Shown piece after piece: positions 1,695 through 63,109 of a DNA stretch of 63,164 bases. The first letter of the stretch is position 1. Each line of letters opens with the position of its first letter. The translations under genes were made by a program, and so were the position numbers. Source of the DNA: Candidatus Peribacteraceae bacterium (lineage in GTDB: Bacteria; Patescibacteriota; Gracilibacteria; Peribacterales; Peribacteraceae); NCBI GenBank assembly GCA_018062585.1, contig JAGORY010000001.1, forward strand, positions 1 to 63,164, written 5' to 3'. The notes under the pieces were generated by a model. The model was not told the DNA's origin. It ran no database searches and saw only the letters and a list, made by a program, of their open reading frames with translations.

Positions 1695-1729
1695 GTGTAA
1701 AATGAAAAGTGAAAAATGAAAAGTTAAAG
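1695..1729 (+). repeat. heptamer tandem array (GTGTAAA ATGAAAA GTGAAAA ATGAAAA GTTAAAG), A-rich variant
   Basis: Five consecutive 7-nt units of RTGAAAA type between the ybaB start and the mutY-like stop. A similar array is at 20604-20638. Confidence 0.6.
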
Positions 1730-2704: not shown

Positions 2705-2719
2705 ACTGGGATCATACAA

Positions 2720-2789
2720 GCGGGTAGAAGGTAGCGGATAGTGAATAGCAAAAAATCTAGCCGCAACTCGCTACCCGCTACCCGCTAGC
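2720..2789. repeat. heptamer-periodic palindromic element (GTAG element), copy 1
   Basis: Left arm is gcgggtagaaggtagcggatag (2720-2741). Right arm is gctacccgctacccgctagc (2770-2789). The CTA at 2785-2787 serves as the TAG stop of the upstream minus-strand ATPase gene. Confidence 0.8.
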
Positions 2790-5397
2790 TAGCCTTCGTA
2801 ATCCCGATCCTGTCCTCGATCTCTTGGTCGACGAATGCTTTCTTGCGGCCGTACTTCATGCGGCTGTATTCCTTGATGAGTGAACCAAGCTTCTCGTTTC
2901 GTTCGGACTCGTCGTAGATCGTCGCGAGCGAGAACGGACGCGAGGTCGTGTTGTTGATGTTCAGTTTCACGTAGCAGTTGAAGTTCGGGATACCGATGAC
3001 GTCTTGCTCGGAGAGCACGGGCGCGAATTCCTTGGCCATGTACTCAGCATCCTCGGCGCCGATCTTGAAGCTCATGATGGTACCCACGTTACCGAACACG
3101 GCGTCGCGCATCTTGGTGCTGGCCTGTCCGTAGCCTTCGGTCTTACCCACGAGCTGGCCGATGTACTGGTGAGCCATGATGAGGCCGAGTTCGTACTTAC
3201 GGGCCTCGGAGAGGATTGTCGCAAACGCATCGGTGATGAAGTTCTGGAATTCGTCCACGTAAAGGTAGAAACGCTTGCGGTCGCGCTGTGGGACGTCGGC
3301 GCGGCTCATAGCCGCCATGTTCACTTTGTTCACGAAGATTAATCCAAGCAGCTGAGCATTAACGTCACCTATTTTTCCTTTACTCAGGTTGACCAAAAGC
3401 ACTTTGCCGGAGTCCATGACTTCGCGGACATTGAAGGCCGACTTGGGCTGTCCGATGATATTGCGCATCGTCGTGTTCGTGACGAACGGACCGAACTTCG
3501 CCGAGAAGTAGGGAATCATTTCTTCTTTTTCGCGCTGTCCGGTCTTGGCCATTTCGTTCTCCCAGAAACTGCGGACGACGGCATTCCTGCACTTCGCCAC
3601 TTTGTACCGCTGGAATTCTTCGTCGACGAAAAGACGCGGCACGTCGAGGAGGGTCGCGCCTTCTTCCTCGTCATCCATGAGAGTCAGACAGCCGTTACGG
3701 AAGTAGTGCTGGATGCGCGGACCGAAGATCTCGTTTCCGAACATCTTGATGAAAATTTCCATCGCATCGAGCGAGGCCCGATCTTTCTCCTCGGGCGTTG
3801 TAGCTTCCAGAAGGTTTAAGCCCATCGGGCGTTCACCGTCCGAAGGATCAAAAACGATGACGTCCTTGGCACGTTCTTTCGGCGTGTGAGCAAGCGCATC
3901 TTCGATCAAGTCTCCGTGCGGATCGATGACACAGAGACCCTCGCCATTCGCGATGTCCTGCCGAGATTGCCAGTTGAGGAGCGCGGATTTACCCGAACCG
4001 GATTTACCGATGATGTACTGGTGACGGGTGCGGTCCTTGTCGAGGAAACGGATGCTAGTCTCGACAGCACGGTGACGGTTGATGCCGAGGATGATGCCTT
4101 CTTGCGGCGCGTTCGGCGGAGGCGGAAGAATCTTGTAGAGGATCCACTGAAGATTCGGAATCGTGTTGTAGCGGCTGTCGGGGAAATGGAAAATCGAGGC
4201 CAACTCTTTCTCGACGAGCAAGTTCCGCTTATGAGCGAAGCCGTTCACGCGGCGCTTCCAGAGCGGATAGATCAGGTACTGGTTCCACGCCATCGGCAGG
4301 AAGTCGATGATCATCCGGCGGTTCTTCAGGAAGTTGCCGTACTGATCTTTGAACACGTTGAACGACACCTGGAGATTATTGGTGATGTCATTGGCGCGCT
4401 CCCACGTCTTGGCCGCAGCCATGATACGGATCGTCGTGTGAAATCCACTCATGCCGGCTTTCTCACCCATGCGTTTATAGAGCTCTTCCTCGGGCGCGAT
4501 CATGCGGACGAATGAGTCGCCAGATTTTGCGCCGGGAGCGAGGGTTGCCGAATCCGATGAGCCGACCATACCGAGCAGGGTGCCGACGAGCTTGAGGCCG
4601 GGAATCTTATCGAATACTGTTTCTTTCTTTCCCTTGAAACTCTGCGAAGCGATGGCTTTCGTCTTTTTGGACCAATAATTCCCAAACACTGGCGTAACAA
4701 TGACCTGCACCGAGGCCTTCTCTTCGGGATGCAGTTTCGAGAGCGCGTTCGTGAGATCGTTCAAGGGATCATCCTGCATGTGATCGAAGAATCGCAGCGG
4801 GTACATGTACGGCTTCTTCGTAATCATGTTGTAGATCGAGAGTTTGTAGCCCTCGGGCCAGATCTCGGGTGTCGGGGTGAGCGAAACGTCCGCATTCGGG
4901 TAGTACGACGTGATCTGCTTCTCGATAATGGACGTAAGTTTGCCGGGGCAGAGAACGTAGAACGTGATGAGGCCGTCTTCTACAAAGAGCTCAAAACTGA
5001 TGGTGATGTAACGGAAAATCCAGAAGTGGATAACCTGCCAGAACGTGAGATCCTTCACTTCATTGACCGCGCGGAAGAGCTGTTCCATGATCGCGATTTT
5101 TTCCTTGAAGTCTTTCTCTGTGCGCTTCTCCTGATCCATCTTGCTGTCGCTCCTCGGTAGAATGACTTTCATCGAGACGAGCTTCTTACCCGCGCGATAC
5201 GCGTACCAATAACGCATTGTGAATACGGCGTAGTAGATGATCGTCAGCACAAGCAGAATCACGAACGAGTTCTCGACAGGTGCCCCGATGAACCAACGAC
5301 CGCAGATGCCCCAAATGTTCAGATTGAACAGGAAACCCGCAATGGAAATCACTGCGAGCAGAATTGGCCAGAAGAGGAGGCGGAGGAGTGTGAACAT
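2785..5397 (-). CDS. membrane-anchored TraD/TrwB(VirD4)-like, HerA/FtsK-superfamily P-loop ATPase (paralog 1)
   Basis: 870 aa with N-terminal TM helices. Walker A is GKSGSGKS followed by IDPHGDL; Walker B-like is FYLYVDEFQ; ARKYELGLIMAHQ follows. The C-terminal ~450 aa are collinear with 25226..27724. Confidence 0.8.
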   Translation of the reverse strand: MFTLLRLLFWPILLAVISIAGFLFNLNIWGICGRWFIGAPVENSFVILLVLTIIYYAVFTMRYWYAYRAGKKLVSMKVILPRSDSKMDQEKRTEKDFKEKIAIMEQLFRAVNEVKDLTFWQVIHFWIFRYITISFELFVEDGLITFYVLCPGKLTSIIEKQITSYYPNADVSLTPTPEIWPEGYKLSIYNMITKKPYMYPLRFFDHMQDDPLNDLTNALSKLHPEEKASVQVIVTPVFGNYWSKKTKAIASQSFKGKKETVFDKIPGLKLVGTLLGMVGSSDSATLAPGAKSGDSFVRMIAPEEELYKRMGEKAGMSGFHTTIRIMAAAKTWERANDITNNLQVSFNVFKDQYGNFLKNRRMIIDFLPMAWNQYLIYPLWKRRVNGFAHKRNLLVEKELASIFHFPDSRYNTIPNLQWILYKILPPPPNAPQEGIILGINRHRAVETSIRFLDKDRTRHQYIIGKSGSGKSALLNWQSRQDIANGEGLCVIDPHGDLIEDALAHTPKERAKDVIVFDPSDGERPMGLNLLEATTPEEKDRASLDAMEIFIKMFGNEIFGPRIQHYFRNGCLTLMDDEEEGATLLDVPRLFVDEEFQRYKVAKCRNAVVRSFWENEMAKTGQREKEEMIPYFSAKFGPFVTNTTMRNIIGQPKSAFNVREVMDSGKVLLVNLSKGKIGDVNAQLLGLIFVNKVNMAAMSRADVPQRDRKRFYLYVDEFQNFITDAFATILSEARKYELGLIMAHQYIGQLVGKTEGYGQASTKMRDAVFGNVGTIMSFKIGAEDAEYMAKEFAPVLSEQDVIGIPNFNCYVKLNINNTTSRPFSLATIYDESERNEKLGSLIKEYSRMKYGRKKAFVDQEIEDRIGITKAS

Positions 5398-5487: not shown

Positions 5488-5522
5488 TCCGCAGCAGGGA
5501 CGCGGCGTCCCAGTCTACGGGA
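5488..5522 (-). repeat. REP-like hairpin repeat, copy 3 (inverted orientation)
   Basis: The reverse complement reads ccgtagactgggacgccgcgtccctgctgcgg, nearly identical to 14351-14387 and 15201-15237. Confidence 0.8.
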
Positions 5523-10985: not shown

Positions 10986-13900
10986 ATGACGAAGGACATG
11001 ACCAGCGGCACTCCCGTGCCCCATCAGGGCGGGGAGGCCAGTTTCCCAAATTTGGACTGGCTCAAGGACGTGAAAACAATCCTCCTCCTTGGCTCAGGCG
11101 CGCTGAAAATCGGCGAAGCTGGTGAGTTTGATTACTCCGGTTCACAGGCCATCAAGGCATTCAAGGAAGAAGGCAAGCGCGTCGTGCTCATCAATCCGAA
11201 CATCGCGACCAACCAAACGAGCTGGGGACTTGCCGACCGGGTGTACTTCCTGCCGGTGAAGCCGGAGTTCGTGGAGAAAGTCATTGAGGCCGAAAAGCCT
11301 GAAGCGATCGCCTTGAGTTTCGGCGGACAAACGGCCTTGAACTGCGGCGTTGCGCTCGAAGATTCGGGTGTGCTGAAAAAATACGGTGTCCGCGTACTCG
11401 GCACCTCGGTCGACGCCATCAAGAAAACGGAGGACAGAGCACTCTTCAATGCCGAGCTCAATAGTATCGGTGTCTCAGTCCCCCGCTCCGTCGCCTGCGA
11501 ATCGCTCGAAACAGCCAAACAAGCGGTCACGACGATCGGCCTGCCGGTCATGATCCGCGCCGCATTTGCGCTCGGAGGCAAAGGCAGCGGCCGCGCGTCG
11601 ACGATGGAAAAAGCTGAAGAAATCCTGAAGGTCGCGTTTGTCGAATCACACCAAGTACTCGTAGAAGAGGACCTCACGGGCTGGAAAGAAATCGAGTACG
11701 AGGTGGTGCGCGACGCGTTCGATAACTGCATCACGGTCTGCAATATGGAGAATATTGATCCACTCGGCATCCACACCGGCGAATCCATCGTCGTCGCTCC
11801 GAGTCAGACGCTCGATAATGAGGATTATCAGATGCTTCGGACCATCGCGCTCAAAGTCATCCGGCACCTTGGGATCATCGGCGAATGCAATATCCAGTAC
11901 GCACTGCACCCGAAGAGTCGCACGTACCGCGTCATCGAAGTTAACGCTCGTCTCAGCCGCAGCTCGGCACTTGCCTCGAAGGCGACAGGTTACCCACTCG
12001 CGTTCGTCGCCGCCAAGCTCGCACTCGGCTACGCGCTACCGGAGATTAAGAATTCGATCACGCAAGTAACATGCGCCGACTTCGAACCGTCGCTGGACTA
12101 CGTCGCCGTGAAAGTGCCGCGGTGGGATCTTGCAAAATTTAACTTCGTCAGCACCGAAATCTCGACTGAAATGAAGTCAGTCGGCGAAGTCATGGCGCTC
12201 GGCCGCACGATGGAAGAAGCGCTTCAGAAAGCCATGCGCATGCTCAATAACGGATCACAAGGACTCTTTCCGGTGCCGTTTAAGTTCGTGAAGAAGAATC
12301 TCAAGAATGACATCAAGACTCCGTGTCCGCGTCGCATCTACGCCGTCGCCGAAGGACTGTGCGGTGACTTCAGCGTTGAGGAGATCAATATCATGACCGG
12401 CATCGACAAATGGTTTCTGGAGCGCATCAAGCGTTGCGCCGATCTGAAGCACGAACTTTTTCAAACTAAATCGACGGCACTGACGCCGGAGCTCCTGAGA
12501 CATTGCAAAGAGCGCGGATTTTCTGACAAAGGCATCGCGATGATCCGCGACGAAAAGCAGGAAGAAGTGACGAGCGCGAGACTGACGTTCGGTATCACGC
12601 CATTCGTGAAACAGATCGATACACTCGCCGGCGAATTCCCAGCAAAGACGAACTATATGTTCTTTACGTACAACGGGGCGGAGGCGGATGTGGTTTTTGA
12701 TATACATGATGAAGAAGGTAGCGGGGAGAAGGTAGCGGATAGAGACATTGTAACTACCCGCGACCCGCTACCCGCTACCCGCCAGCGCGTCATCGTCATC
12801 GGCGGCGGCCCGTACTCCATCGGTTCCTCGGTGGAATTCGACTGGTGCTGTGTGCAGGCGGTCAGGGAACTCATGAAACAGGGATACGAGGTCACGATGA
12901 TCAACAGTAATCCGGAAACTGTGTCCACGGACTACGACGAATGTGACCAGCTATTCTTCGACGAACTCACACTCGAACGTATGATGGACGTCATCAGACT
13001 TTTAAAACCGGTCGGTGTCGTCGTCTCGATGGGCGGACAGATCCCGAACTCGCTGGCGCTCAAGCTCGCCAAGGAAGGAGTTCCGATTCTCGGTACCGAT
13101 CCCGCCAACATCGATAAAGCCGAGGACCGCCACAAATTCGGCAAGCTGATGGACGAACTAAAAGTTGACCAGCCGGAGTGGAGAGAATTTGCCGATCTCG
13201 CATCTGCCAAGAATTTCGCCAAGACTGCGGGTTATCCAGTCATCGTGCGCCCCAGCTACGTGCTCTCGGGTGCGGCGATGACAGTGGTGATGAACGAGGA
13301 CGACCTCAAAGAATTCATCGAGGAAGCAACAAGCCTCAGTAAAGAAGCGCCGGTCGTCATCTCCAAATTTGAAACGAATGCCAAAGAAATCGACTTCGAT
13401 GGGGTCGCCCAAAACGGCAAGCTTCTTCTATACGCCATCAGCGAACACGTCGAGAACGCGGGTGTGCACTCGGGTGATGCGACGATCGTCCTGCCGCCGC
13501 AGCGCGTGAACATCGAGACGTTCCGGAAGATCAAAGCCATCGCCAAGAAAATTGCGCAAGGCCTACAGATCTCGGGGCCATTCAACATTCAGTTCCTCGC
13601 CAAAAATAACCGTCTCAAAGTGATCGAATGCAATCTCCGTGCCAGCCGCAGCTTCCCGTTTGCGAGCAAGGTAACGGGCGTGAACTTCGCCGAACTCGCA
13701 ACCCAAGCGCTTCTCAAGCGCGCTCCCGAGAACGTGCGGTACCAGACGATGGACTTGGATCACGTCGGTGTAAAAGCGGCGCAGTTCAGCTTCTCACGTC
13801 TCAAAGGTGCGGACCCGAGGCTCGGCGTCGAGATGGCATCCACCGGAGAAGTAGCTTGTTTCGGCCATAGTATGGAACAGGCACTCATGCTGTCCCTCAA

Positions 13901-14342
13901 AGCCATCGGTTTCGTGACGCCACGCAAGAACGTGCTCCTCACAATCGGAAAATTGGAAGACAAGATCGATCTCCTACCCGCGATCGAAGCGCTCAAGAAT
14001 CTTGGCTTCGCGTTCTTCGCAACCGGACGTACGCATGAATTTCTGGCATCGAGAAATATTCCGAGTGCGCTGCTGCATAAAATCTCGGAGCCACGGAGTC
14101 CAAACATCAAAGAGTATCTCGAGAGCAAACGCATCGACCTCGTCATCAATATTCCGCAACACAGTTCGTCCGCCGAAAAGACCGACGGTTACTTCATCCG
14201 CCGAATCGCAACCGACAGAGGCATCCCACTCATCACGAACGTACAGCTTGCAAAGCGCATCGTGGAAGCGCTGGAACTGGAGAAAGAATGCGACGACTCC
14301 CCGCTCATTCCGTGGCCGGATCTCTTGGTGCACAAATCCTGA
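10986..14342 (+). CDS. carB: carbamoyl-phosphate synthase large subunit
   Basis: 1118 aa with two ATP-grasp halves (GSGALKIGEAGEFDYSGSQA and GGGPYSIGSSVEFDWCCVQA) and an MGS-like C-terminus. Confidence 0.95.
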   Translation: MTKDMTSGTPVPHQGGEASFPNLDWLKDVKTILLLGSGALKIGEAGEFDYSGSQAIKAFKEEGKRVVLINPNIATNQTSWGLADRVYFLPVKPEFVEKVIEAEKPEAIALSFGGQTALNCGVALEDSGVLKKYGVRVLGTSVDAIKKTEDRALFNAELNSIGVSVPRSVACESLETAKQAVTTIGLPVMIRAAFALGGKGSGRASTMEKAEEILKVAFVESHQVLVEEDLTGWKEIEYEVVRDAFDNCITVCNMENIDPLGIHTGESIVVAPSQTLDNEDYQMLRTIALKVIRHLGIIGECNIQYALHPKSRTYRVIEVNARLSRSSALASKATGYPLAFVAAKLALGYALPEIKNSITQVTCADFEPSLDYVAVKVPRWDLAKFNFVSTEISTEMKSVGEVMALGRTMEEALQKAMRMLNNGSQGLFPVPFKFVKKNLKNDIKTPCPRRIYAVAEGLCGDFSVEEINIMTGIDKWFLERIKRCADLKHELFQTKSTALTPELLRHCKERGFSDKGIAMIRDEKQEEVTSARLTFGITPFVKQIDTLAGEFPAKTNYMFFTYNGAEADVVFDIHDEEGSGEKVADRDIVTTRDPLPATRQRVIVIGGGPYSIGSSVEFDWCCVQAVRELMKQGYEVTMINSNPETVSTDYDECDQLFFDELTLERMMDVIRLLKPVGVVVSMGGQIPNSLALKLAKEGVPILGTDPANIDKAEDRHKFGKLMDELKVDQPEWREFADLASAKNFAKTAGYPVIVRPSYVLSGAAMTVVMNEDDLKEFIEEATSLSKEAPVVISKFETNAKEIDFDGVAQNGKLLLYAISEHVENAGVHSGDATIVLPPQRVNIETFRKIKAIAKKIAQGLQISGPFNIQFLAKNNRLKVIECNLRASRSFPFASKVTGVNFAELATQALLKRAPENVRYQTMDLDHVGVKAAQFSFSRLKGADPRLGVEMASTGEVACFGHSMEQALMLSLKAIGFVTPRKNVLLTIGKLEDKIDLLPAIEALKNLGFAFFATGRTHEFLASRNIPSALLHKISEPRSPNIKEYLESKRIDLVINIPQHSSSAEKTDGYFIRRIATDRGIPLITNVQLAKRIVEALELEKECDDSPLIPWPDLLVHKS
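12717..12782 (+). repeat. heptamer-periodic palindromic element inserted in frame within carB (copy 2)
   Basis: Sequence: ggtagcggggagaaggtagcggatag ... ctacccgcgacccgctacccgctacccgc. It spans 66 nt (22 codons) and is translated as GSGEKVADRDIVTTRDPLPATR. Confidence 0.8.
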
Positions 14343-14350
14343 CTATACCC

Positions 14351-14387
14351 TCACCGTAGACTGGGACGCCGCGTCCCAGCTGCGGGA
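14351..14387 (+). repeat. REP-like hairpin repeat, copy 1 (tcaccGTAGactgggacgccgcgtcccagctgcggga)
   Basis: The 37 nt are identical to 15201-15237. A GTAG precedes the CTGGGACGC/GCGTCCCAG palindrome. Confidence 0.85.
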
Positions 14388-14484
14388 AGAAGTGAAAGCC
14401 GAAGTCGAGAGTAAGGCGAGGAGCGGAAACAGACCGAAACGAACTTGCGAAGGCCCGCTATATCCCTTACCATGCCTCAGCTTT

Positions 14485-14700
14485 ATGGCTGTCCACGCAA
14501 TCAAAAGAGGCGATGAATCCAATGAGAGGCTCCAGAGCCGCTTTAAAAAGCAGTTTCAGGAGTCCCGAGTTCTGAAGGTGCGTCGTGATCGCAAGACACA
14601 CAAGCGCCGCGTCACCCGCCGTCTCCAGCGCATCCGTGCCCTCAAGCGCGAAGGTTTCCGCGCAGCCAACGTGAAGAACCAGTTCTACTCCAACATGTAA
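14485..14700 (+). CDS. rpsU: 30S ribosomal protein S21
   Basis: 71 aa: MAVHAIKRGDESNERLQSRFKKQFQESRVLKVRRDRKTHKRRVTRRLQR..., a basic S21-like pattern. It is the C-terminal part of ORF 14002..14700, whose upstream part overlaps carB. Confidence 0.7.
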   Translation: MAVHAIKRGDESNERLQSRFKKQFQESRVLKVRRDRKTHKRRVTRRLQRIRALKREGFRAANVKNQFYSNM

Positions 14701-14709
14701 GACAGAGTG

Positions 14710-14727
14710 AGACCGAGGGTCTTTTTT
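14710..14727 (+). terminator. intrinsic terminator after rpsU
   Basis: Stem AGACC-gag-GGTCT followed by TTTTT. Confidence 0.5.
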
Positions 14728-14752
14728 GTCGTGTTCCTGTTACGATCTTCCT

Positions 14753-15184
14753 ATGATCCAGCGCGAAAGAGCCCGAAGCGGCGGCGTCATGTTCGTCACC
14801 ATGAACACATGGCACAGGAGACAGGTGTTCATTCATCCGAATTTCGCGACGAAGGCGATCGACTATGTGTATGCGCTCCAGAAGAAGCACGGTTTTCTGA
14901 TCCACGGTTTCGTCGTGATGCCCGATCACATCCATCTGCTTCTCACGATCAAAGCACCCTATACGATCGACGCTTTCACGCATGATTATCGCACAGGCTT
15001 AAGCTTCGAACTCGGCACCGGCGCGTTCTTCGAGGAGTACGTCGATCTCCGGATGCCGGAGAAACCGACGATGAAACTTGAGTACATGCACGACAAACCG
15101 TTCAAAGCGGCGCTCTGCGATAATCCCAAGAACTATCCGTGGTCGTCCGCTACAGGAAAGTGGAAGGTGACACCGATCGAATAA
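14753..15184 (+). CDS. REP-associated tyrosine transposase (RAYT; IS200/IS605 Y1 HUH family)
   Basis: HUH motif in VVMPDHIHLLL. The Tyr motif and tail LEYMHDKPFKAALCDNPKNYPWSS resemble the RAYT Y(I/V)HxNP...YPWSS signature. The ORF-track start at 14726 is TTG; the first ATG is at 14753. Confidence 0.8.
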   Translation: MIQRERARSGGVMFVTMNTWHRRQVFIHPNFATKAIDYVYALQKKHGFLIHGFVVMPDHIHLLLTIKAPYTIDAFTHDYRTGLSFELGTGAFFEEYVDLRMPEKPTMKLEYMHDKPFKAALCDNPKNYPWSSATGKWKVTPIE

Positions 15185-15200
15185 AAAGCTGCGAACACCA

Positions 15201-15237
15201 TCACCGTAGACTGGGACGCCGCGTCCCAGCTGCGGGA
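15201..15237 (+). repeat. REP-like hairpin repeat, copy 2
   Basis: Identical 37-mer to 14351-14387, located 17 nt after the RAYT stop. Confidence 0.85.
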
Positions 15238-15238
15238 G

Positions 15239-15820
15239 TTATGAATATACTGAGAATCCCGCCTTTTTGAGCAACTCTCCCAGAATGTACACCGGAAGTC
15301 CGACGATGCCGGGGTAATCCCCTTCGATATGGGAGATCATGAGCTGACCCGGTCCGTCGATTTGGAACGCACCCGAACGTCCGCGCCACAGGTCGGTACT
15401 GATCCACCAGTCGAGGTCTTTCGGTGACAGTTTCTTAAATCTCACCGACGACGTCGACATTCCTTCGTGAACACCGCCTTTGGCATCCACGATGCAGAGC
15501 GCGGAGTGAACCTGAGATATCGCGCCGCTTTGTGCTTCCAACATGCGCCTTGCGTCATCTGAGTCCTTCGGCTTCTCGAGGAGTTCACCCGCGTACGACA
15601 CCACAAGCGTATCGCAGCCGATGACGATGGCACCGTTATTCTTGGAAGCGATGTCCTCAGCCTTCAGTCGTGCAAGAATCATCGCGCGTTCAACCGGACT
15701 CTTTTCAGGATGACCGTCTTCATCGACAGAGCTTGGGATGACTTCGAACGTGACGCCCAAATCTTCAAGCAGAGTTTTTCGCTGTGGACTGGCCGAGGCG
15801 AGGATGAGACGGGGATGCAT
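15239..15820 (-). CDS. maf: Maf family nucleoside triphosphate pyrophosphatase
   Basis: 193 aa with motifs LILASASPQRKTLLEDLG, IGCDTLV and GAFQIDG. Confidence 0.85.
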   Translation of the reverse strand: MHPRLILASASPQRKTLLEDLGVTFEVIPSSVDEDGHPEKSPVERAMILARLKAEDIASKNNGAIVIGCDTLVVSYAGELLEKPKDSDDARRMLEAQSGAISQVHSALCIVDAKGGVHEGMSTSSVRFKKLSPKDLDWWISTDLWRGRSGAFQIDGPGQLMISHIEGDYPGIVGLPVYILGELLKKAGFSVYS

Positions 15821-15824
15821 GAAA

Positions 15825-15887
15825 GCGGGTAGAAGATAGAAGGTAGCGGGTAGAAGATCTATATACTATCCGCTACCCGCTACTCGC
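15825..15887. repeat. heptamer-periodic palindromic element, copy 3
   Basis: Sequence: gcgggtag aagatag aaggtag cgggtag ... ctatccg ctacccg ctactcg. It fills the spacer between the S41 protease stop (15892) and the maf start (15820). Confidence 0.8.
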
Positions 15888-15891
15888 TTGA

Positions 15892-17517
15892 TTACCGGAG
15901 AATGTCGAGCGCCCTGCGGAGCTGCTCATCACGATCCGCAGACTCGATGACGATGTCCGGCACGACGCCGACTTTATCGATGTGACGACCGAGCGGTGTC
16001 AGCCATTCCGCTATCGTGAGTTTTAAGGCCTCGCCGGAACGGAATCCGATGACTTCCTGCACTGTGCCTTTGCCGAACGTCGTAGCACCGACGATAGTGG
16101 CGCGCTTCAGGTCTTGGAGAGCTCCAGCTACGATCTCCGAGGCACTCGCTGAACCCTTATTTACGAGGACGACGACCTTCGTGGACGGGCTGATGGTAGG
16201 TTCATCCTGCGTCTTCTCGAGCGATGTCTCGGAGCGACTCACCACCTGTGCGACGACACTGCCGCGCGGAATGAAGTTACTCATGACGACGTCCGCTGCA
16301 TTGAGAAGTCCTCCTCCATTGTTACGGAGATCAAGGACGATGCCCTGCGGATTCTTCTCTGCGATTTTCTGGAACTCGCCACGGATCGTACGCTCGGTCT
16401 TCTCGCCGAATTGCACGAGCTGGACGACGGCGATGTTGCCGTGCCACGTGATCGTGATCTCGGGGATCGTCACGACATCGCGAACGACGGTGACGGTCAT
16501 CTCGGTTCCATTGCGACGAAGCTTGAGGAGGACGGACGTTCCGCGCTCGCCACGGATGTACGACACCGCTTTTTCGATGCCAAGTCCTTGGAGCACAACG
16601 CCGCCTGCTTCGAGGATTTCATCACCGGCCTGAATGCCGGCTCTCTCCGCAGGTGAACCCGGAAGCGGTGTGACGACCGTGACGATGCCTGCTTTGTCTT
16701 CCACATGTGCACCGATGCCAGTGACTTCACCTTTGATCTGCGACTGGAAATCAGTAGCACCCGCCGGACGGAAGAACGTGCTGTAGGGATCATTGAGTGA
16801 ATTCACGAGACCTTCGATGGCCTTGTACGACGATTCATTGTTGTCGAGCTTGTCGGCGTGGATGTAATCGCGCTTGATGAGGTGCCACACAGCATCCATC
16901 AGCTCCTGATTCGGGAGCGTGCCTCCACCCGATACCGTCACGGGGATCGTTATAGTCGTCTTCACTGGCATCTGTCCCGCGACGGCCTGCAGGACGGACA
17001 AAGCCTCGATACCCGTGAGCTGCTGAGAAAGACCGAAGTGGGACGCACTCTGTGGCACCATCCATTTCAGTGTCAGCGCGTTTCTCGCAGCCTGCTCTTC
17101 GCTCTCTGTCTTCAGATCTCTGAACGCTGAGATATCACCCTGTTCCTGTTTGTCAGTCAGTGCCGTCAGTACCTCCAAAGCCTCGCCGCGAGTGATCGGA
17201 CGATTGAGCGGATACTGCTTGGCGGTCCCGAAGACTGCGAGCGCGCCCTGTGTCTGTGCGGCACACAGCGTCTGCTTCATGCCCCGCGGTACACGGATAT
17301 ACGGCAGGCGGCACGTTCCGTTCTCCTTCTGGAGATCAAGCGCTGCAAATGACCACGAGAGAAAGTTCGCGCGCGTCACCGTTTTTGCAGACGTATCCAC
17401 GAGACCAACGACCGGCCTCGCAAAGGCGAAGGACGGTGCGAGGAGAAAAAGAACAGCAGATGCGGAAATGAGTCGGCGACGAAAAACCATACGCATTGGG
17501 GGTGAATGTTGCGTCAT
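15892..17517 (-). CDS. S41 family C-terminal processing peptidase with SLH-like N-terminal modules and PDZ domain
   Basis: Motifs: LDLRNNGGGLL, VLVNKGSASASEIVAGALQD, TFGKGTVQ. The ORF-track start at 17532 is GTG; ATG candidates are at 17517, 17496 and 17490. Confidence 0.85.
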   Translation of the reverse strand: MTQHSPPMRMVFRRRLISASAVLFLLAPSFAFARPVVGLVDTSAKTVTRANFLSWSFAALDLQKENGTCRLPYIRVPRGMKQTLCAAQTQGALAVFGTAKQYPLNRPITRGEALEVLTALTDKQEQGDISAFRDLKTESEEQAARNALTLKWMVPQSASHFGLSQQLTGIEALSVLQAVAGQMPVKTTITIPVTVSGGGTLPNQELMDAVWHLIKRDYIHADKLDNNESSYKAIEGLVNSLNDPYSTFFRPAGATDFQSQIKGEVTGIGAHVEDKAGIVTVVTPLPGSPAERAGIQAGDEILEAGGVVLQGLGIEKAVSYIRGERGTSVLLKLRRNGTEMTVTVVRDVVTIPEITITWHGNIAVVQLVQFGEKTERTIRGEFQKIAEKNPQGIVLDLRNNGGGLLNAADVVMSNFIPRGSVVAQVVSRSETSLEKTQDEPTISPSTKVVVLVNKGSASASEIVAGALQDLKRATIVGATTFGKGTVQEVIGFRSGEALKLTIAEWLTPLGRHIDKVGVVPDIVIESADRDEQLRRALDILR

Positions 17518-19209: not shown

Positions 19210-20607
19210 ATGCCAGCCCCCTCACTCGATGCATTAGTCTCTCTCTGCAAGCGCCGCGGATTCATCTTCCCGGGCTCGGAAATTTACGGAGGACTCGCGA
19301 ACACGTGGGACTACGGACCGCTTGGACTTGAGATCAAGAACCGCATTCAACGTGAATGGTGGAGACGTTTCGTCCACACCCGCAAAGATATGGTCGGCAT
19401 CGAGACCGGCATTCTTATGAACCCCAAAGTTTGGGAAGCAAGCGGTCACGTCTCGAACTTCGGTGATCCTCTCGTTGATTGCAAAAAGTGCAACCAGCGT
19501 TTCCGCGGTGACAAACTTCTCGAAGAAAAAATCGGCGTGGAAGGTGCGGCCGTGTTGACGCTTGATCAGGTACAACCAATGCTCGTCGCCGAGAAAATAA
19601 AATGTCCATCGTGCGGAAGCGTCGACTGGGCAGTTGCTAAGAAATTCAACCTCATGTTCAAGACCCAGCAGGGCGTCATCGAGGGCGAAGGTGCCGACAT
19701 TTACCTGCGTCCCGAGACCGCACAAGGCATGTTCGTGAACTTCAAGAATATCGCGAATACTAGCCGCAAAAGGCTTCCCTTTGGAGTCGCCCAAGTAGGC
19801 ACGGTGTTCCGCAATGAAATCACGCCAGGCAACTTCACGTTCCGCACCCGCGAGTTCCAGCAGATGGAGATCGAATACTTCGTGGAACCCGGTACCGAAG
19901 GACCGATCTTCGAGACATGGAAAGATGCGATGTGGCAGTGGTGCCTCGATATCGGGCTCTCTCCCGAACGTCTCCGCGTCCGCGAACACACGAAGGAAGA
20001 ACTCTCGCATTACTCGTCCCGCACGCTCGACATCGAATACAAGTATCCGTGGGGATGGGGCGAACTCTACGGCCTCGCGAACCGCGCAGACTTTGATCTC
20101 TCGCAGCATGCCAAGTTCAGCGGACAGGACATGACGTACACGGATCCCGATGATCCGACGAAGAAGTTCGTGCCCTACGTCATCGAGCCCACGTTCGGCC
20201 TCACGCGCACGGTGCTTTCAATTCTTTTGGAAGCATACGAAGACGAAAAACTGGAAGGAGACGACAGTCGCACGGTGCTCCATCTAAAACCGTTCATCGC
20301 TCCTTTCGATCTCGCGATTCTGCCGCTCTCGAAGAAAGAACATCTAAGCAAGTACGCCGACGAGCTCCACGCAAAACTGGTCGCCGAAACCGGACTCGTT
20401 ATCGACTACGATGTCACGGGCAGTATCGGCAAACGTTATCGACGTCAGGATGAAATCGGCACGCCTTCGTGTGTAACCGTAGACTTCGGCACGATCGGCG
20501 AAGACGCGGCGCAGGGTGAAAAAGACACAGTGACAATCCGCGACCGCGACACCCAGAAGCAGGACCGCCTCACGATCTCGGCACTCATCGACGTGCTGAA
20601 GAAATGA
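19210..20607 (+). CDS. glyQS: glycine--tRNA ligase (dimeric class II type)
   Basis: 465 aa. The N-terminus LVSLCKRRGFIFPGSEIYGGLANTWDYGPLG is followed by class II motifs. Confidence 0.95.
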   Translation: MPAPSLDALVSLCKRRGFIFPGSEIYGGLANTWDYGPLGLEIKNRIQREWWRRFVHTRKDMVGIETGILMNPKVWEASGHVSNFGDPLVDCKKCNQRFRGDKLLEEKIGVEGAAVLTLDQVQPMLVAEKIKCPSCGSVDWAVAKKFNLMFKTQQGVIEGEGADIYLRPETAQGMFVNFKNIANTSRKRLPFGVAQVGTVFRNEITPGNFTFRTREFQQMEIEYFVEPGTEGPIFETWKDAMWQWCLDIGLSPERLRVREHTKEELSHYSSRTLDIEYKYPWGWGELYGLANRADFDLSQHAKFSGQDMTYTDPDDPTKKFVPYVIEPTFGLTRTVLSILLEAYEDEKLEGDDSRTVLHLKPFIAPFDLAILPLSKKEHLSKYADELHAKLVAETGLVIDYDVTGSIGKRYRRQDEIGTPSCVTVDFGTIGEDAAQGEKDTVTIRDRDTQKQDRLTISALIDVLKK

Positions 20608-20638
20608 AAAATGAAGAGTGAAGAGTGAAAAATGACAG
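20604..20638 (+). repeat. heptamer tandem array (ATGAAAA ATGAAGA GTGAAGA GTGAAAA ATGACAG)
   Basis: Five 7-nt units. The first TGA (20605-20607) is the glyQS stop codon. Confidence 0.6.
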
Positions 20639-51356: not shown

Positions 51357-51402
51357 TGCGTCAGTACTTGCGTGCGAGGTAGCGGAGTGACACGATAGCG
51401 AC

Positions 51403-60113: not shown

Positions 60114-60356
60114 GGTTTCAGGTGATAGGTTAGAGGTGATAGGTGATAGACAATTGATGATGAAAGCGTGCCTGCTTGCCGGCCTTGAGTCCAAAGGTGT
60201 GCTTGCACGACGTAGCTCGGCCCTCGGTGCAAAAAAATTCACTCTTACTCCGAAGGATCGTTAGCATAGACGCTGAGCGAAGTCGTGTCAACTCGATAAT
60301 ACAAGATATGCAAGAAAAAAGCCCCACTCGGGGCTCCCTTCTTTCTTGAGGGCAAT

Positions 60357-63080: not shown

Positions 63081-63109
63081 GCGGGTAGCGATTAGCGGAT
63101 AGTAGGTAG
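63081..63109 (+). repeat. heptamer GTAG array, half element (gcgggtag cgattag cggatag taggtag)
   Basis: Four xxxxTAG units fill the rpsL-rpsG spacer. No right arm is present. Confidence 0.6.

Follow-up and report, generated by a model that had tools for sequence, protein, structure and literature searches.

Palindromic arrays of seven-nucleotide words at gene junctions of a Candidatus Peribacteraceae genome and their association with PF05635 genes

Introduction

What are the hairpin repeats, with arms that are runs of 7-nt words of the form xxxxTAG and CTAxxxx, which occupy many intergenic gaps in the genome of a Candidatus Peribacteraceae bacterium of the CPR? The question arises from a stretch of 63,164 nucleotides of this genome (the window), in which a first-pass annotation had noticed several such elements in very short spacers. 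Among the long simple repeats of bacterial genomes, heptamers are the most common. The Peribacteria genome paper is silent on heptamer-word repeats (PMC4736985).

The assembly comprises 1.04 Mb and is 88% complete, for a genome of 1.2 Mb. The focal genome is called G000, its congeners are G001-G005, and further relatives carry labels beginning with G or L. Genes were called genome-wide by a crude ORF and codon-score caller with the longest-ORF start, and distances to starts are reliable only for genes with a conserved N-terminus (rpsL, rpsG, rpsM, maf, adk and gnd).

Results

Copies in the window

The elements and the candidate considered in the window are as follows.

2718..2791, no strand assigned: full palindromic copy, consisting of AAG, an F arm, a 22-nt loop and an R arm
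2721-2748: F arm of this copy, CGGGTAG AAGGTAG CGGATAG TGAATAG
2771-2791: R arm of this copy, CTACCCG CTACCCG CTAGCTA
15823..15889, no strand assigned: full palindromic copy, consisting of AAG, F arm 15826-15853, a 5-nt loop, R arm 15859-15886 and CTT
12717..12782, plus strand: copy inserted in frame, about 22 codons long, within the linker that joins the two halves of CarB (10986-14342)
63082..63109, minus strand: solitary arm in the spacer from the rpsL stop to the rpsG start
1699..1724, minus strand: solitary TGA-word arm (AAAATGA/AAAGTGA) in stop-free sense
20602..20635, plus strand: solitary stop-bearing TGA-word arm, first TGA at 20605-20607
60120..60150, minus strand: third-family arm (GTGATAG/GTTAGAG), ending 6 nt before the ATG at 60114-60112
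51377..51400, no strand assigned: rejected "degenerate relative" with two or three loose xxxxTAG words

Both arms were located in each of the two full copies that had been reported at 2720-2789 and 15825-15887. The first folds at -35.1 kcal/mol (z = -7.1) and fills the junction between a minus-strand ATPase gene and a minus-strand HhH-GPD gene, whose longest-ORF start is the TTG at 2717-2719, with the nearest ATGs at 2712-2714 and 2702-2704. The CTA at 2785-2787, proposed as the stop of the ATPase gene, does end the minus-strand 870-aa ORF 2785-5397. The second copy folds at -31.5 kcal/mol (z = -7.1) and fills a minus-strand junction from the S41 protease stop, which was correctly placed at 15892 (codon TTA, 15892-15894), to the maf start at 15818-15820. 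The intragenic copy reported at 12717-12782 lies in frame within carB, and the unit whose TAG would be in frame reads GAG.

The single arm described at 63081-63109 is present at 63082-63109; in mRNA sense it reads CTACCTA CTATCCG CTAATCG CTACCCG, followed by 6 nt and the ATG at 63075-63073. The A-rich TGA arrays given as 1695-1729 and 20604-20638 correspond to the arms at 1699-1724, 11 nt ahead of minus-strand ORF 1397-1687 (start at 1687), and at 20602-20635, whose first TGA ends ORF 19210-20607, as had been suggested for a gene named glyQS. The third-family arm reads CTATCAC CTATCAC CTCTAAC CTATCAC in mRNA sense, and arms of its word family also flank the PF05635 gene that the genome itself has on contig C45. 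The candidate at 51377-51400 was dropped from the family, being too degenerate and picked up by no array detector. An Rfam search of the window returned one tRNA only and no known RNA family at the elements.

Architecture of the arrays

The window has 4 occurrences of the pattern (TAGN4)x4, and 100 dinucleotide shuffles have none. Across the 1.04-Mb genome there are about 145 period-7 arms, and 130 period-7 arrays were counted compared with 0 in a shuffle, so that the heptamer family is real and genome-wide. Arrays with periods of 8-12 are almost absent, and the most frequent 10- to 14-mers of the genome are the words of the heptamer arrays. Among invariant triplets TAG/CTA leads by far, with 82 arrays where the runner-up has 26, and three word families are present in G000, namely N4TAG, N4TGA and NNNATAG. 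The sister family with TGA in place of TAG, which had been suspected from the window, was found to have the architecture of the TAG family, yet its words lack GTAG.

In all 39 arm pairs the stop-bearing arm comes first and the CTA arm second, and the reverse order does not occur. A TAG/CTA unit search yielded 32 palindromes (31 of the TAG-word family, one not), with a median predicted folding energy of -35 kcal/mol and z = -5.9; the expectation that the arms form hairpins is thus borne out by predicted folds beyond chance. In a permutation of arms, own arms paired no better than foreign ones (p = 0.77-0.998). Pairing therefore reflects the word consensus common to the copies rather than copy-specific complementarity, and since the arms of one copy show no co-variation, selection on the stem is unsupported, which counts against the cassette reading proposed below. 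The longest stretch common to any two TAG-family copies is 25 nt and consists of words, and no 10-mer is shared between the loops of any two of them. For this family the copies thus give no sign of simple copy-paste from a master element, which also counts against the cassette reading, and recent copy-and-paste was rejected. As a side observation, CGGGTAG runs match the G-quadruplex pattern G3N4G3 on paper, but most arms are broken by AAGGTAG or CGGATAG.

Several of these features also suit another explanation, in which the arrays are plain heptamer simple-sequence repeats (STRR/LSSR) made in place by slippage and recombination, with their orientation filtered by selection, and PF05635 genes are later invaders homing into the hairpin loops. 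Every copy differs in word number and order, the loops are unrelated, arrays expand to 15-25 units and the arms do not co-vary. Furthermore, heptamers are the commonest long SSR class in prokaryotes and polymerase slippage has been proposed for them, according to what two later papers relay of Mrazek 2007 (via PMC4679880, PMC4692102). Against this, slippage alone does not seed one genome-specific word at about 100 scattered sites, within genes and in 2-6-nt junctions, and the order of arms in the pairs is 39 to 0. We regard this explanation as unlikely, and further evidence on both its sides comes from the PF05635 loci.

Placement at stop and start codons

Arrays strongly favour gene ends, the point for which a genome-wide scan had been suggested: 73% of array bases fall within the non-coding 14% of the genome. 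The sense of the arms depends on the neighbouring codon, with 26 stop-bearing and 7 stop-free arms after stops, compared with 23 stop-free and 2 stop-bearing arms before starts. At 12 gene ends the stop codon is itself the outermost TAG of an arm, and the supply of actual stop codons by arrays, first seen at the ATPase gene, is upheld. Among solitary arms in tandem spacers, 14 of the 17 in stop-free sense sit 1-12 nt before a start, against 0 of the 11 in stop-bearing sense; the starts preceded at 1-12 nt by CTA-sense arms include those of rpsL, rpsG, rpsM and maf. Seven of these 11 stop-bearing arms have no partner arm and hence no stem, which counts against the cassette reading, while the other four belong to the third word family and have degenerate partners missed by the detector. 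The rpsL-rpsG arm also lacks a partner and forms no stem.

GGAGG was found in less than 1% of upstream regions, where G is depleted, and the organism has no Shine-Dalgarno signal. One could consider the arrays to be selected cis-signals: the stop-free arm would act as a Shine-Dalgarno-independent leader (e.g. an S1 site), and the stop-bearing arm as a stop buffer in three frames; alternatively, cistrons would be stabilised or coupled through the hairpin. The stop-free arms before the verified starts of the four genes just named agree with this, as do the presence of an S1-like protein and the like behaviour of the TAACTGA heptamer repeats of Beggiatoaceae (PMC4679880). In the rpsL-rpsG spacer, moreover, an arm of constant sense is found in G000 and about 9 of 29 relatives, in different word families (the arrays of the relatives are of CTA or TCAC type); in G009, G015 and G017 it is part of a full palindrome. 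On the other hand, arrays occupy 6-11% of spacers only (11% of tandem spacers), so they are not a general signal, and in congeners the corresponding junctions have spacers of 2-12 nt and no array. In addition, some relatives have stop-less words, the purine-rich arm faces the start in G015 and G009, and no such use can be given to the copies within coding regions. We consider this account of the arrays improbable. Stop-bearing arms abut stops. The all-frame stop buffer of the first-pass annotation is weakened as a general principle by relatives whose word cores contain no stops. A universal stop-codon core is ruled out by relatives with the cores GAG, CAA, CGA, GAA or CCC.

Intrinsic transcription terminators at gene ends are a further interpretation of the hairpins, and we believe it to be very improbable. 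Stable hairpins do directly follow stop codons, T-runs follow some copies, and the 88%-complete genome yielded no Rho. Both full copies in the window, though, have no T-tail and were not called by a terminator scan, on which ground the candidate was rejected; most copies lie inside apparent operons, ribosomal-protein ones among them, where the following gene begins after 1-15 nt.

carB and other genes contain copies that keep the reading frame open, the in-frame TAG being altered. Recoding or suppression of TAG was considered for such copies and rejected, as stop usage is normal (TAA 293, TGA 177, TAG 169) and no CUA-anticodon tRNA was found. HutP-type proteins bind (N4UAG)3; a partner of this type was also rejected, as the genome has no PF09021 match.

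Turnover at orthologous sites

Comparison of syntenic spacers, another check that had been proposed, reveals insertion polymorphism among the congeners. The same junctions may be empty, held by another word family or grown to about 25 units. The S41-maf junction contains a TAG-word element in G000, G002 and G003, a 257-nt ACTTGAG-word element in G001, and just 6 nt in G005. The carB linker is empty in G004, G005, L006 and L007 and holds other word families in G001, G003, L004, L005 and L036, with three different families across G000, G001 and G003. No target-site duplication was recognised at tal-gnd, S41-maf or secY-adk when compared with the empty sites, a point against the cassette reading.

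Association with PF05635 genes

The sole PF05635 gene of G000 (C45:293-646) lies between heptamer arms at 241-271 and 689-723. PF05635 is the 23S-rRNA intervening-sequence (IVS) protein (S23p/IVP), and the C45 protein matches PDB 2GSC, XCC0516; to our knowledge PF05635 is not a known transposase. The C45 cassette is inserted in the tal-gnd junction, which measures 2-5 nt in G004 and G005, and the word order of its arm recurs in about 13 gene-less third-family copies. This fixed, asymmetric word order points to copying and speaks against simple-sequence repeats made in place.

In the relatives, both heptamer arms accompany 12 of 30 PF05635 loci and one arm accompanies 8 more, and the array density is 2.9 per kb beside the PF05635 gene and drops to 0.34 per kb in the remainder of those loci. 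The PF05635 gene of G003 is framed by TGGTTAG CAGGTAG AAGGTAG TGGGTAG ... CTACCCG CTATCCG, which are arms of the same TAG word family as the copies in the window, and the orthologous site is empty in G000. The G000 assembly, 88% complete, contains no PF05635 gene flanked by arms of CGGGTAG type, which counts against the cassette reading. Terminal inverted repeats common with a gene-bearing parent, a feature of MITEs, were thus found in two forms, the third-family arms shared with C45 and the TAG arms shared with G003. At the secY-adk junction, G000 has a gene-less palindrome, and G001, G002, G003 and G005 have PF05635 cassettes. At this one junction the PF05635 gene is seen in either orientation and between differing arm types, as invasion of pre-existing repeats would have it.

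The loops of the window copies (5-22 nt) hold no ORF, and PF05635 in a loop is confined to the C45 copy and the cassettes of relatives; the window copies were therefore filed as gene-less relatives and not as IVS. Every copy that was examined sits between or within protein-coding genes, not in 23S rRNA helix 9, 25 or 45.

PF05635 is present in 13 of 13 relatives with at least 10 (TAGN4)x4 arrays, and the 8 relatives without PF05635 have at most 3 such arrays each; this genome-level association is equalled by that of Y1 transposases, and related genomes are not independent samples. The latter association brings us to the suggestion that the elements are REPs or BIMEs moved through the GTAG in each word by the RAYT of the window, a Y1 HUH transposase. 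Y1_Tnp matches occur in 13 of the 13 array-rich relatives, every TAG-family word contains GTAG, and the RAYT gene (14726-15184) is about 640 nt from the copy at 15825. The palindrome that brackets this gene, at 14351-14387 and 15201-15237, is not a heptamer arm: it is the gene's own classical GTAG-REP (CGTAGA-CTGGGACGCCGCGTCCCAG-CTGCGGGA), which forms a separate family of about 11 copies. The inverted repeat of a second Y1 gene is different again. Furthermore, the TGA-word and non-stop-word families share the architecture without GTAG, the copies have no conserved unique stem-loop, the defining feature of REPs, and G020 has arrays and PF05635 without a Y1 match. RAYT mobilisation of the heptamer elements is thus rejected on the flanking evidence, and we give it hardly any credence. 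G000 does hold a true REP/RAYT system, which is distinct from the heptamer elements.

Discussion

We consider it rather probable that the elements are gene-less members of a group of palindromic PF05635 insertion cassettes with heptamer arms. The family with its architecture, the orientation rule, the physical link to PF05635 and the polymorphic insertion at orthologous sites are direct observations. The orientation rule at start codons, the missing Shine-Dalgarno signal, the turnover at orthologous sites and the PF05635 link are points beyond the first-pass annotation. The same 2-6-nt junctions are seen empty, with a gene-less hairpin or with a hairpin carrying the IVS-protein gene, which is unusually clean evidence, and copies are even carried in frame within essential enzymes such as CarB.

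In the mechanism that we infer, from the mode of DNA movement to RNA pairing in vivo and RNase III processing, a cassette would comprise two arms, each a run of 7-nt words (N4TAG, N4TGA or NNNATAG in G000) and inverted relative to the other, and would land in stop-to-start gene junctions and tolerant protein linkers. After landing, its arms would change fast, with words gained, lost and substituted. The 5' arm, offering stops in all three frames on either strand, would close the upstream frame at once, and the 3' arm, G-poor and with neither stop nor start codons, would leave the next start 1-15 nt away, in an organism without Shine-Dalgarno sites. If the arms pair in the RNA, the stop and the start would be brought next to each other at the base of the stem, and the cassettes may be tolerated because the paired stem keeps them together. 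RNase III, whose gene is present in the genome at C73:2544-3188, probably cuts the stem, by analogy with the rRNA intervening sequences.

A broader proposal can be put forward tentatively. Heptamer-armed PF05635 cassettes might be a widespread undescribed mobile element, neutralised in RNA by frame closure, pairing and RNase III excision from rRNA or operon mRNA, with a four-helix-bundle protein that recognises the 7-nt words and helps them spread. If this is true, the excess intergenic heptamers of Xanthomonas, cyanobacteria, Beggiatoaceae and CPR would gain a common origin and a protein partner. It has become testable whether the PF05635 protein is the partner of the heptamer repeats, whether RNase III excises inserts from mRNAs as from rRNA, and how translation of the downstream gene can begin only a few bases past a stem of -35 kcal/mol. 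For the annotation of CPR genomes, start and stop calls at junctions and extra protein segments depend on recognising the elements.

Comparison with known systems

Rickettsia palindromic elements (RPE) are 100-150-bp copies with a conserved sequence, which lie in frame in protein genes as an extra peptide. The heptamer elements are likewise palindromic repeats inserted in frame and kept as added peptide segments, but they are arrays of words without a conserved core. REP/BIME sequences with their RAYT are GTAG-tagged palindromes (PMC3733652). They are similar as short extragenic palindromes at gene ends with one GTAG per word in the TAG family, whereas the heptamer elements have no conserved 20-40-nt imperfect palindrome or unique stem-loop and do not flank the RAYT.

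TAACTGA direct repeats are found in marine Beggiatoaceae, cyanobacteria and Bacteroidetes (MacGregor 2015, PMC4679880). Like the arms described here, they end one to a few nucleotides before starts without a ribosome-binding site, ribosomal-protein operons included, and their copies within ORFs are in stop-free sense only. Their word is different, however, and they face the start in stop-bearing sense and almost never form inverted pairs, while our genome has 39 hairpin-forming pairs and turns the stop-free sense towards the start.

A further known type comprises the GGGAATC repeats of Xanthomonas and the GGGGAYT repeats of Nostoc, which are inverted pairs of heptameric SSRs (Rehm et al. 2015, PMC4692102); the cyanobacterial STRR and heptanucleotide LSSR (Mrazek 2007) are grouped with it. 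Each Xanthomonas genome has 70-75 convergent inverted pairs, and the G-rich strand follows ORFs in coding sense and precedes them in non-coding sense; the paper gives the arrays a G-quadruplex reading (PMC4692102). Common to these and to our elements are dispersed tandem 7-nt arrays, mostly intergenic and near ORF ends, with a strand rule, convergent inverted pairs (39 here), and length and sequence that vary among close relatives. The differences here are several word families per genome with stop codons as word cores, the filling of whole stop-to-start junctions, in-frame copies in essential genes and the PF05635 link.

This link leads to the ORF-bearing 23S rRNA IVS of Coxiella burnetii and Leptospira, which encode S23p/PF05635 (PMC4990558). 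Our elements differ from them in lying between or inside protein genes and in that most copies have no ORF, and excision by RNase III, which is proven for IVS, is inferred here by analogy. The likeness extends to the sporadic distribution, which looks horizontal, and to terminal inverted repeats that make a long stem around the PF05635 ORF. In Coxiella the terminal inverted-repeat stem is cut by RNase III, and heptamer repeats of variable copy number adjoin the ORF (PMC4990558), as the arms do in the cassettes described here.

Heptamer palindromes in the window and in the genome

Direct reading of the window returned the heptamer sequences as they were given in the first-pass annotation. The arms of the two full copies are as follows.

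Arms of the full copies in the window
Copy 1, stop-bearing arm: 2721-2748, plus-strand reading, CGGGTAG AAGGTAG CGGATAG TGAATAG
Copy 1, CTA arm: 2771-2791, 22 nt beyond the first arm, CTACCCG CTACCCG CTAGCTA
Copy 2, two arms: 15826-15853 and 15859-15886, loop of 5 nt

AAG...CTT-type ends flank both copies and also pair in the computed fold. The pattern (TAGN4)x4 occurs 4 times in the window against 0 in 100 dinucleotide shuffles.

In the source genome (G000), the heptamer words are the most frequent 10- to 14-mers. There are 130 period-7 arrays compared with 0 in a shuffle, and periods 8-12 are nearly empty. Of the invariant triplets, TAG/CTA dominates (82 arrays; 26 for the next triplet), and at least three word families are built on one common architecture.

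Word families
Family 1: CGGGTAG/AAGGTAG/CGGATAG
Family 2: AAAGTGA/AAAATGA
Family 3: GTTATAG/GGGATAG/GTGATAG

After merging, 145 arms were counted, and in all 39 arm pairs the stop-bearing arm lies 5' of the CTA/TCA arm (opposite order, 0). The arrays represent 0.5% of the genome, with 73% of their bases within its non-coding 14%. An array is present in 11% of tandem spacers, in 7.5% of divergent ones and in 6% of convergent ones.

The elements are predicted to form stable stems: 32 palindromes from a TAG/CTA unit search, all but one of the TAG family, have a median computed fold of -35 kcal/mol (z = -5.9). Arms within one copy are no more complementary than arms from different copies, so the hairpin is real, yet it is a product of the shared word consensus. 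Among the TAG-family copies of G000, the longest stretch common to any two is at most 25 nt and no 10-mer is common to their loops. No covariation supporting selection on the stem was found; this and the solitary arms are at least as compatible with arrays that decay or slip as with a selected structure. Loop lengths modulo 7 gather at 5, 6, 0 and 1 in 27 of the 32 palindromes, so the two arms keep approximate phase and the loops could be words that have decayed.

Placement relative to stops, starts and linkers

The insertion sites of the elements are stop/start junctions and protein linkers. As the first-pass annotation had proposed, they prefer gene ends: with gene and start calls from our own crude caller, nearly all palindromes lie within -7 to +12 nt of a gene end on at least one side, and at 12 gene ends the outermost TAG of an arm is itself the stop codon. 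Two stops claimed to lie in arrays of the window were confirmed, namely the CTA at 2785-2787 for a minus-strand 870-aa TraD/TrwB-like ATPase ORF and the TGA that comes first in the A-rich array 20602-20635 for the ORF 19210-20607. The S41 protease stop is the TTA at 15892-15894.

Solitary arms in tandem spacers are placed according to their sense. Those in the stop-bearing sense adjoin the upstream stop in 6 of 11 cases, with none of the 11 within 35 nt of the following start, while 14 of 17 in the stop-free sense end 1-12 nt ahead of that start. The start-proximity rule is also true at conserved N-termini.

Distance from arm to start
rpsL (MPTINQL): 3 nt
rpsG: 6 nt
rpsM: 3 nt, from the last full TCACTTC word
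maf: 5 nt
adk: 9 nt

Genes contain 18 solitary arms in the stop-free sense, which are read as protein (YPLPATR, for example); in the 4 found in the stop-bearing sense, the would-be in-frame TAG word reads AAG or GAG. The carB copy (12717-12782) sits in the linker joining the two synthetase halves. This linker is empty in the congeners G004 and G005, whereas G003 has a palindrome of GTTGGCA words there and G001 an ACATGAG/CTCAAGT one; farther relatives have TTACCGC-word, TCAAAGC-word or other arrays in the same place.

On either strand, an element presents stops in all frames on its entry side and none on its exit side. The suggestion that the elements are all-frame stop buffers is only partly sustained. 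A stop triplet is carried on one strand by 124 of the 130 G000 arrays, which fall into just four or five families, and 13 of 31 related genomes have 10 or more copies of (TAGN4)x4 with many different N4, the reversed control pattern being rare. On the other hand, 27 of 69 arrays sampled in relatives have no stop on either strand, and equally periodic arrays there have invariant cores GAG, CAA, CGA, GAA or CCC. The element class is not defined by a stop-bearing 5' arm, although such a design is frequent and probably advantageous.

Turnover at orthologous junctions

The S41-maf spacer is 6 nt in G005. In G000, G002 and G003 it holds a TAG-word palindrome with differing word numbers, and in G001 (L123) an ACTTGAG-word element within a 257-nt spacer. 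One arm of the G001 element has grown to about 25 units (CTCACGT/CTCATGT/CTCTTGT); arrays are clearly able to lengthen by unit duplication.

At rpsL-rpsG, the arm is of the CTA type in G000, G003, G008 and G016 and of the TCAC/TCAA type in G001, G002, G005 and G018; full palindromes are present in G009, G015 and G017, and the spacer is 12 nt in G013. Every single arm here has its stop-free sense toward the start. In G000, this junction ends the window contig C77 (63082-63164), and the same rpsL end, arm and rpsG start recur where contig C81 ends (from about 16848); therefore, the two contigs abut in the genome. The str operon goes on into C81, where a palindrome (16287-16362) and an arm (16402-16422) lie ahead of rpsL.

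The secY-adk junction has a CGGGTAG palindrome without a gene in G000, a PF05635 (S23p/IVP) cassette with (TGAGTAG)3 arms in G001 and G003, RAYT-type REPs in G006 and no element in G004. In G002 (L203) and G005 (L204), the cassette is reversed relative to G001 and G003 and its arms, GTTAGGTAG GTTGGGTAG GTCAGGTAG ... CCTACCCAA CCTACCGTA, have a period of 9-10 nt; therefore, the arm word length is not always 7. Target duplication was not seen when tal-gnd, S41-maf and secY-adk were compared with empty sites.

PF05635 cassettes

The palindromes are of the same class as the PF05635 cassettes. The sole PF05635 gene of G000 (contig C45:293-646; 127 bits; PDB 2GSC match, E = 1e-23) is framed by heptamer arms.

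Arms of the C45 cassette
Left arm: 241-271, GGTTATAG GTTAGAG GGGATAG GTTATAG
Right arm: 689-723, CTACCCC CTATAAC CTATCAC CTATCCC CTATAAC

About 13 gene-less palindromes have the asymmetric word order of this cassette, CTATAAC CTATCAC CTCTAAC CTATAAC. The cassette occupies the junction of tal and gnd, a spacer of 2 nt in G004 and of 5 nt in G005. The tal stop is a TGA within the cassette arm, and the gnd ATG is lost. No ATG, GTG or TTG stands ahead of the GxGxxG motif (IGVIGLGVMG) of gnd (L165, 200-275); its in-frame sequence is TAA CCT ATA ACC TCC ATC GGT, and the G004/G005 counterpart is ATG CAA ACC TCT. Either the ATA of the last arm word is the start, or the gene is damaged.

The link was tested in G000 and in relatives and holds. 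Among 30 PF05635 loci, 12 have both heptamer arms and 8 have one, and array density beside PF05635 is about nine times that elsewhere in the same loci. The arms around a PF05635 gene in G003, TGGTTAG CAGGTAG AAGGTAG TGGGTAG ... CTACCCG CTATCCG, are of the word family of the window copies, and the orthologous G000 site is empty. PF05635 is not known to be a transposase. In this clade it resembles a multi-copy mobile gene in its behaviour, with up to 24 copies per genome of roughly 1.1 Mb. The counts were 24 in G015, 11 in G027, 10 in G010 and 9 in G022 (genome sizes 0.7-1.5 Mb); of the 14 well-known genomes used as controls, Bacteroides thetaiotaomicron alone had PF05635.

RAYT and true REPs

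A RAYT, a Y1 transposase partnered with REP palindromes, had been put forward as a candidate mobiliser. A true REP/RAYT system is present in G000: the window Y1 gene (14726-15184; Y1_Tnp, 30.7 bits) has a classical GTAG-REP, CCGTAGA-CTGGGACGCCGCGTCCCAG-CTGCGGGA, on each side (14351-15237), the two copies being in direct orientation. This REP numbers about 11 copies genome-wide, including one at window 5495-5513. An rpsU-like ORF shares the interval between the two flanking copies, and a heptamer palindrome on contig C5 (713-857) holds one GTAG-REP copy in its loop. A second Y1-transposase-like gene (contig C11:1517-2149) is bounded by an inverted repeat of its own, CTTCCAGCCAATGGGTGGGCG / CGCCCACCCATTGGCTGGAAG (C11:1424-2195). 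Y1 hits were obtained in 13 of 13 array-rich relatives, as were PF05635 hits, these related genomes being non-independent samples. Heptamer arms flank neither of the two Y1 genes of G000 and the RAYT is bracketed by a different REP, which argues against RAYT mobilisation of the heptamer elements.

Translation context and proposed mechanism

From CarB relatives, the window was assigned to Candidatus Peribacteraceae (Peregrinibacteria, CPR). The G000 assembly comprises 91 contigs totalling 1.04 Mb (completeness 88%, GC 54%), with the standard genetic code and without a suppressor tRNA. No Shine-Dalgarno signal was found upstream of its genes, GGAGG being present in less than 1% of upstream regions, and the 16S rRNA 3' end is ...GGAACATCTCCTTA, not GGATCACCTCCTTA (16S on contig C58:3828-5305; about 2960-2978 of L003). 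Upstream of genes, G is depleted to 0.10-0.14 at positions -13 to -7, and there is an excess of T at -12 and of A at -11. This excess suggests that -10 boxes lie near the starts and hence that the mRNAs are leaderless or have short leaders. An S1-like protein and RNase III are encoded; Rho was not found in the 88% complete assembly.

We infer that the stem in the transcript would return the upstream stop and the downstream start to its foot, so that a closely coupled junction (2-6 nt when empty) would still work. By analogy with the intervening sequences (IVS) of rRNA, RNase III may cut the stem, and such a cut would leave a short G-poor leader, suited to an organism without Shine-Dalgarno sites.

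Comparison with known systems

In our literature search, no link of intergenic heptamer palindromes to PF05635 cassettes was found, the protein itself being seldom mentioned there, and the Peribacteria genome paper does not mention heptamer repeats. Related arrays are known elsewhere. Xanthomonas has dispersed heptamer arrays with convergent inverted pairs and rapid length change, located near ORF ends and obeying a strand rule (Rehm et al. 2015, PMC4692102), and start-proximal TAACTGA arrays without ribosome-binding sites have been described (MacGregor 2015, PMC4679880). For the cassettes, rRNA insertions of CPR bacteria contain PF05635 ORFs (bioRxiv 10.1101/2024.02.27.582315), and in the Coxiella IVS, RNase III cuts the terminal inverted-repeat stem and variable heptamer repeats adjoin the S23p ORF (PMC4990558).
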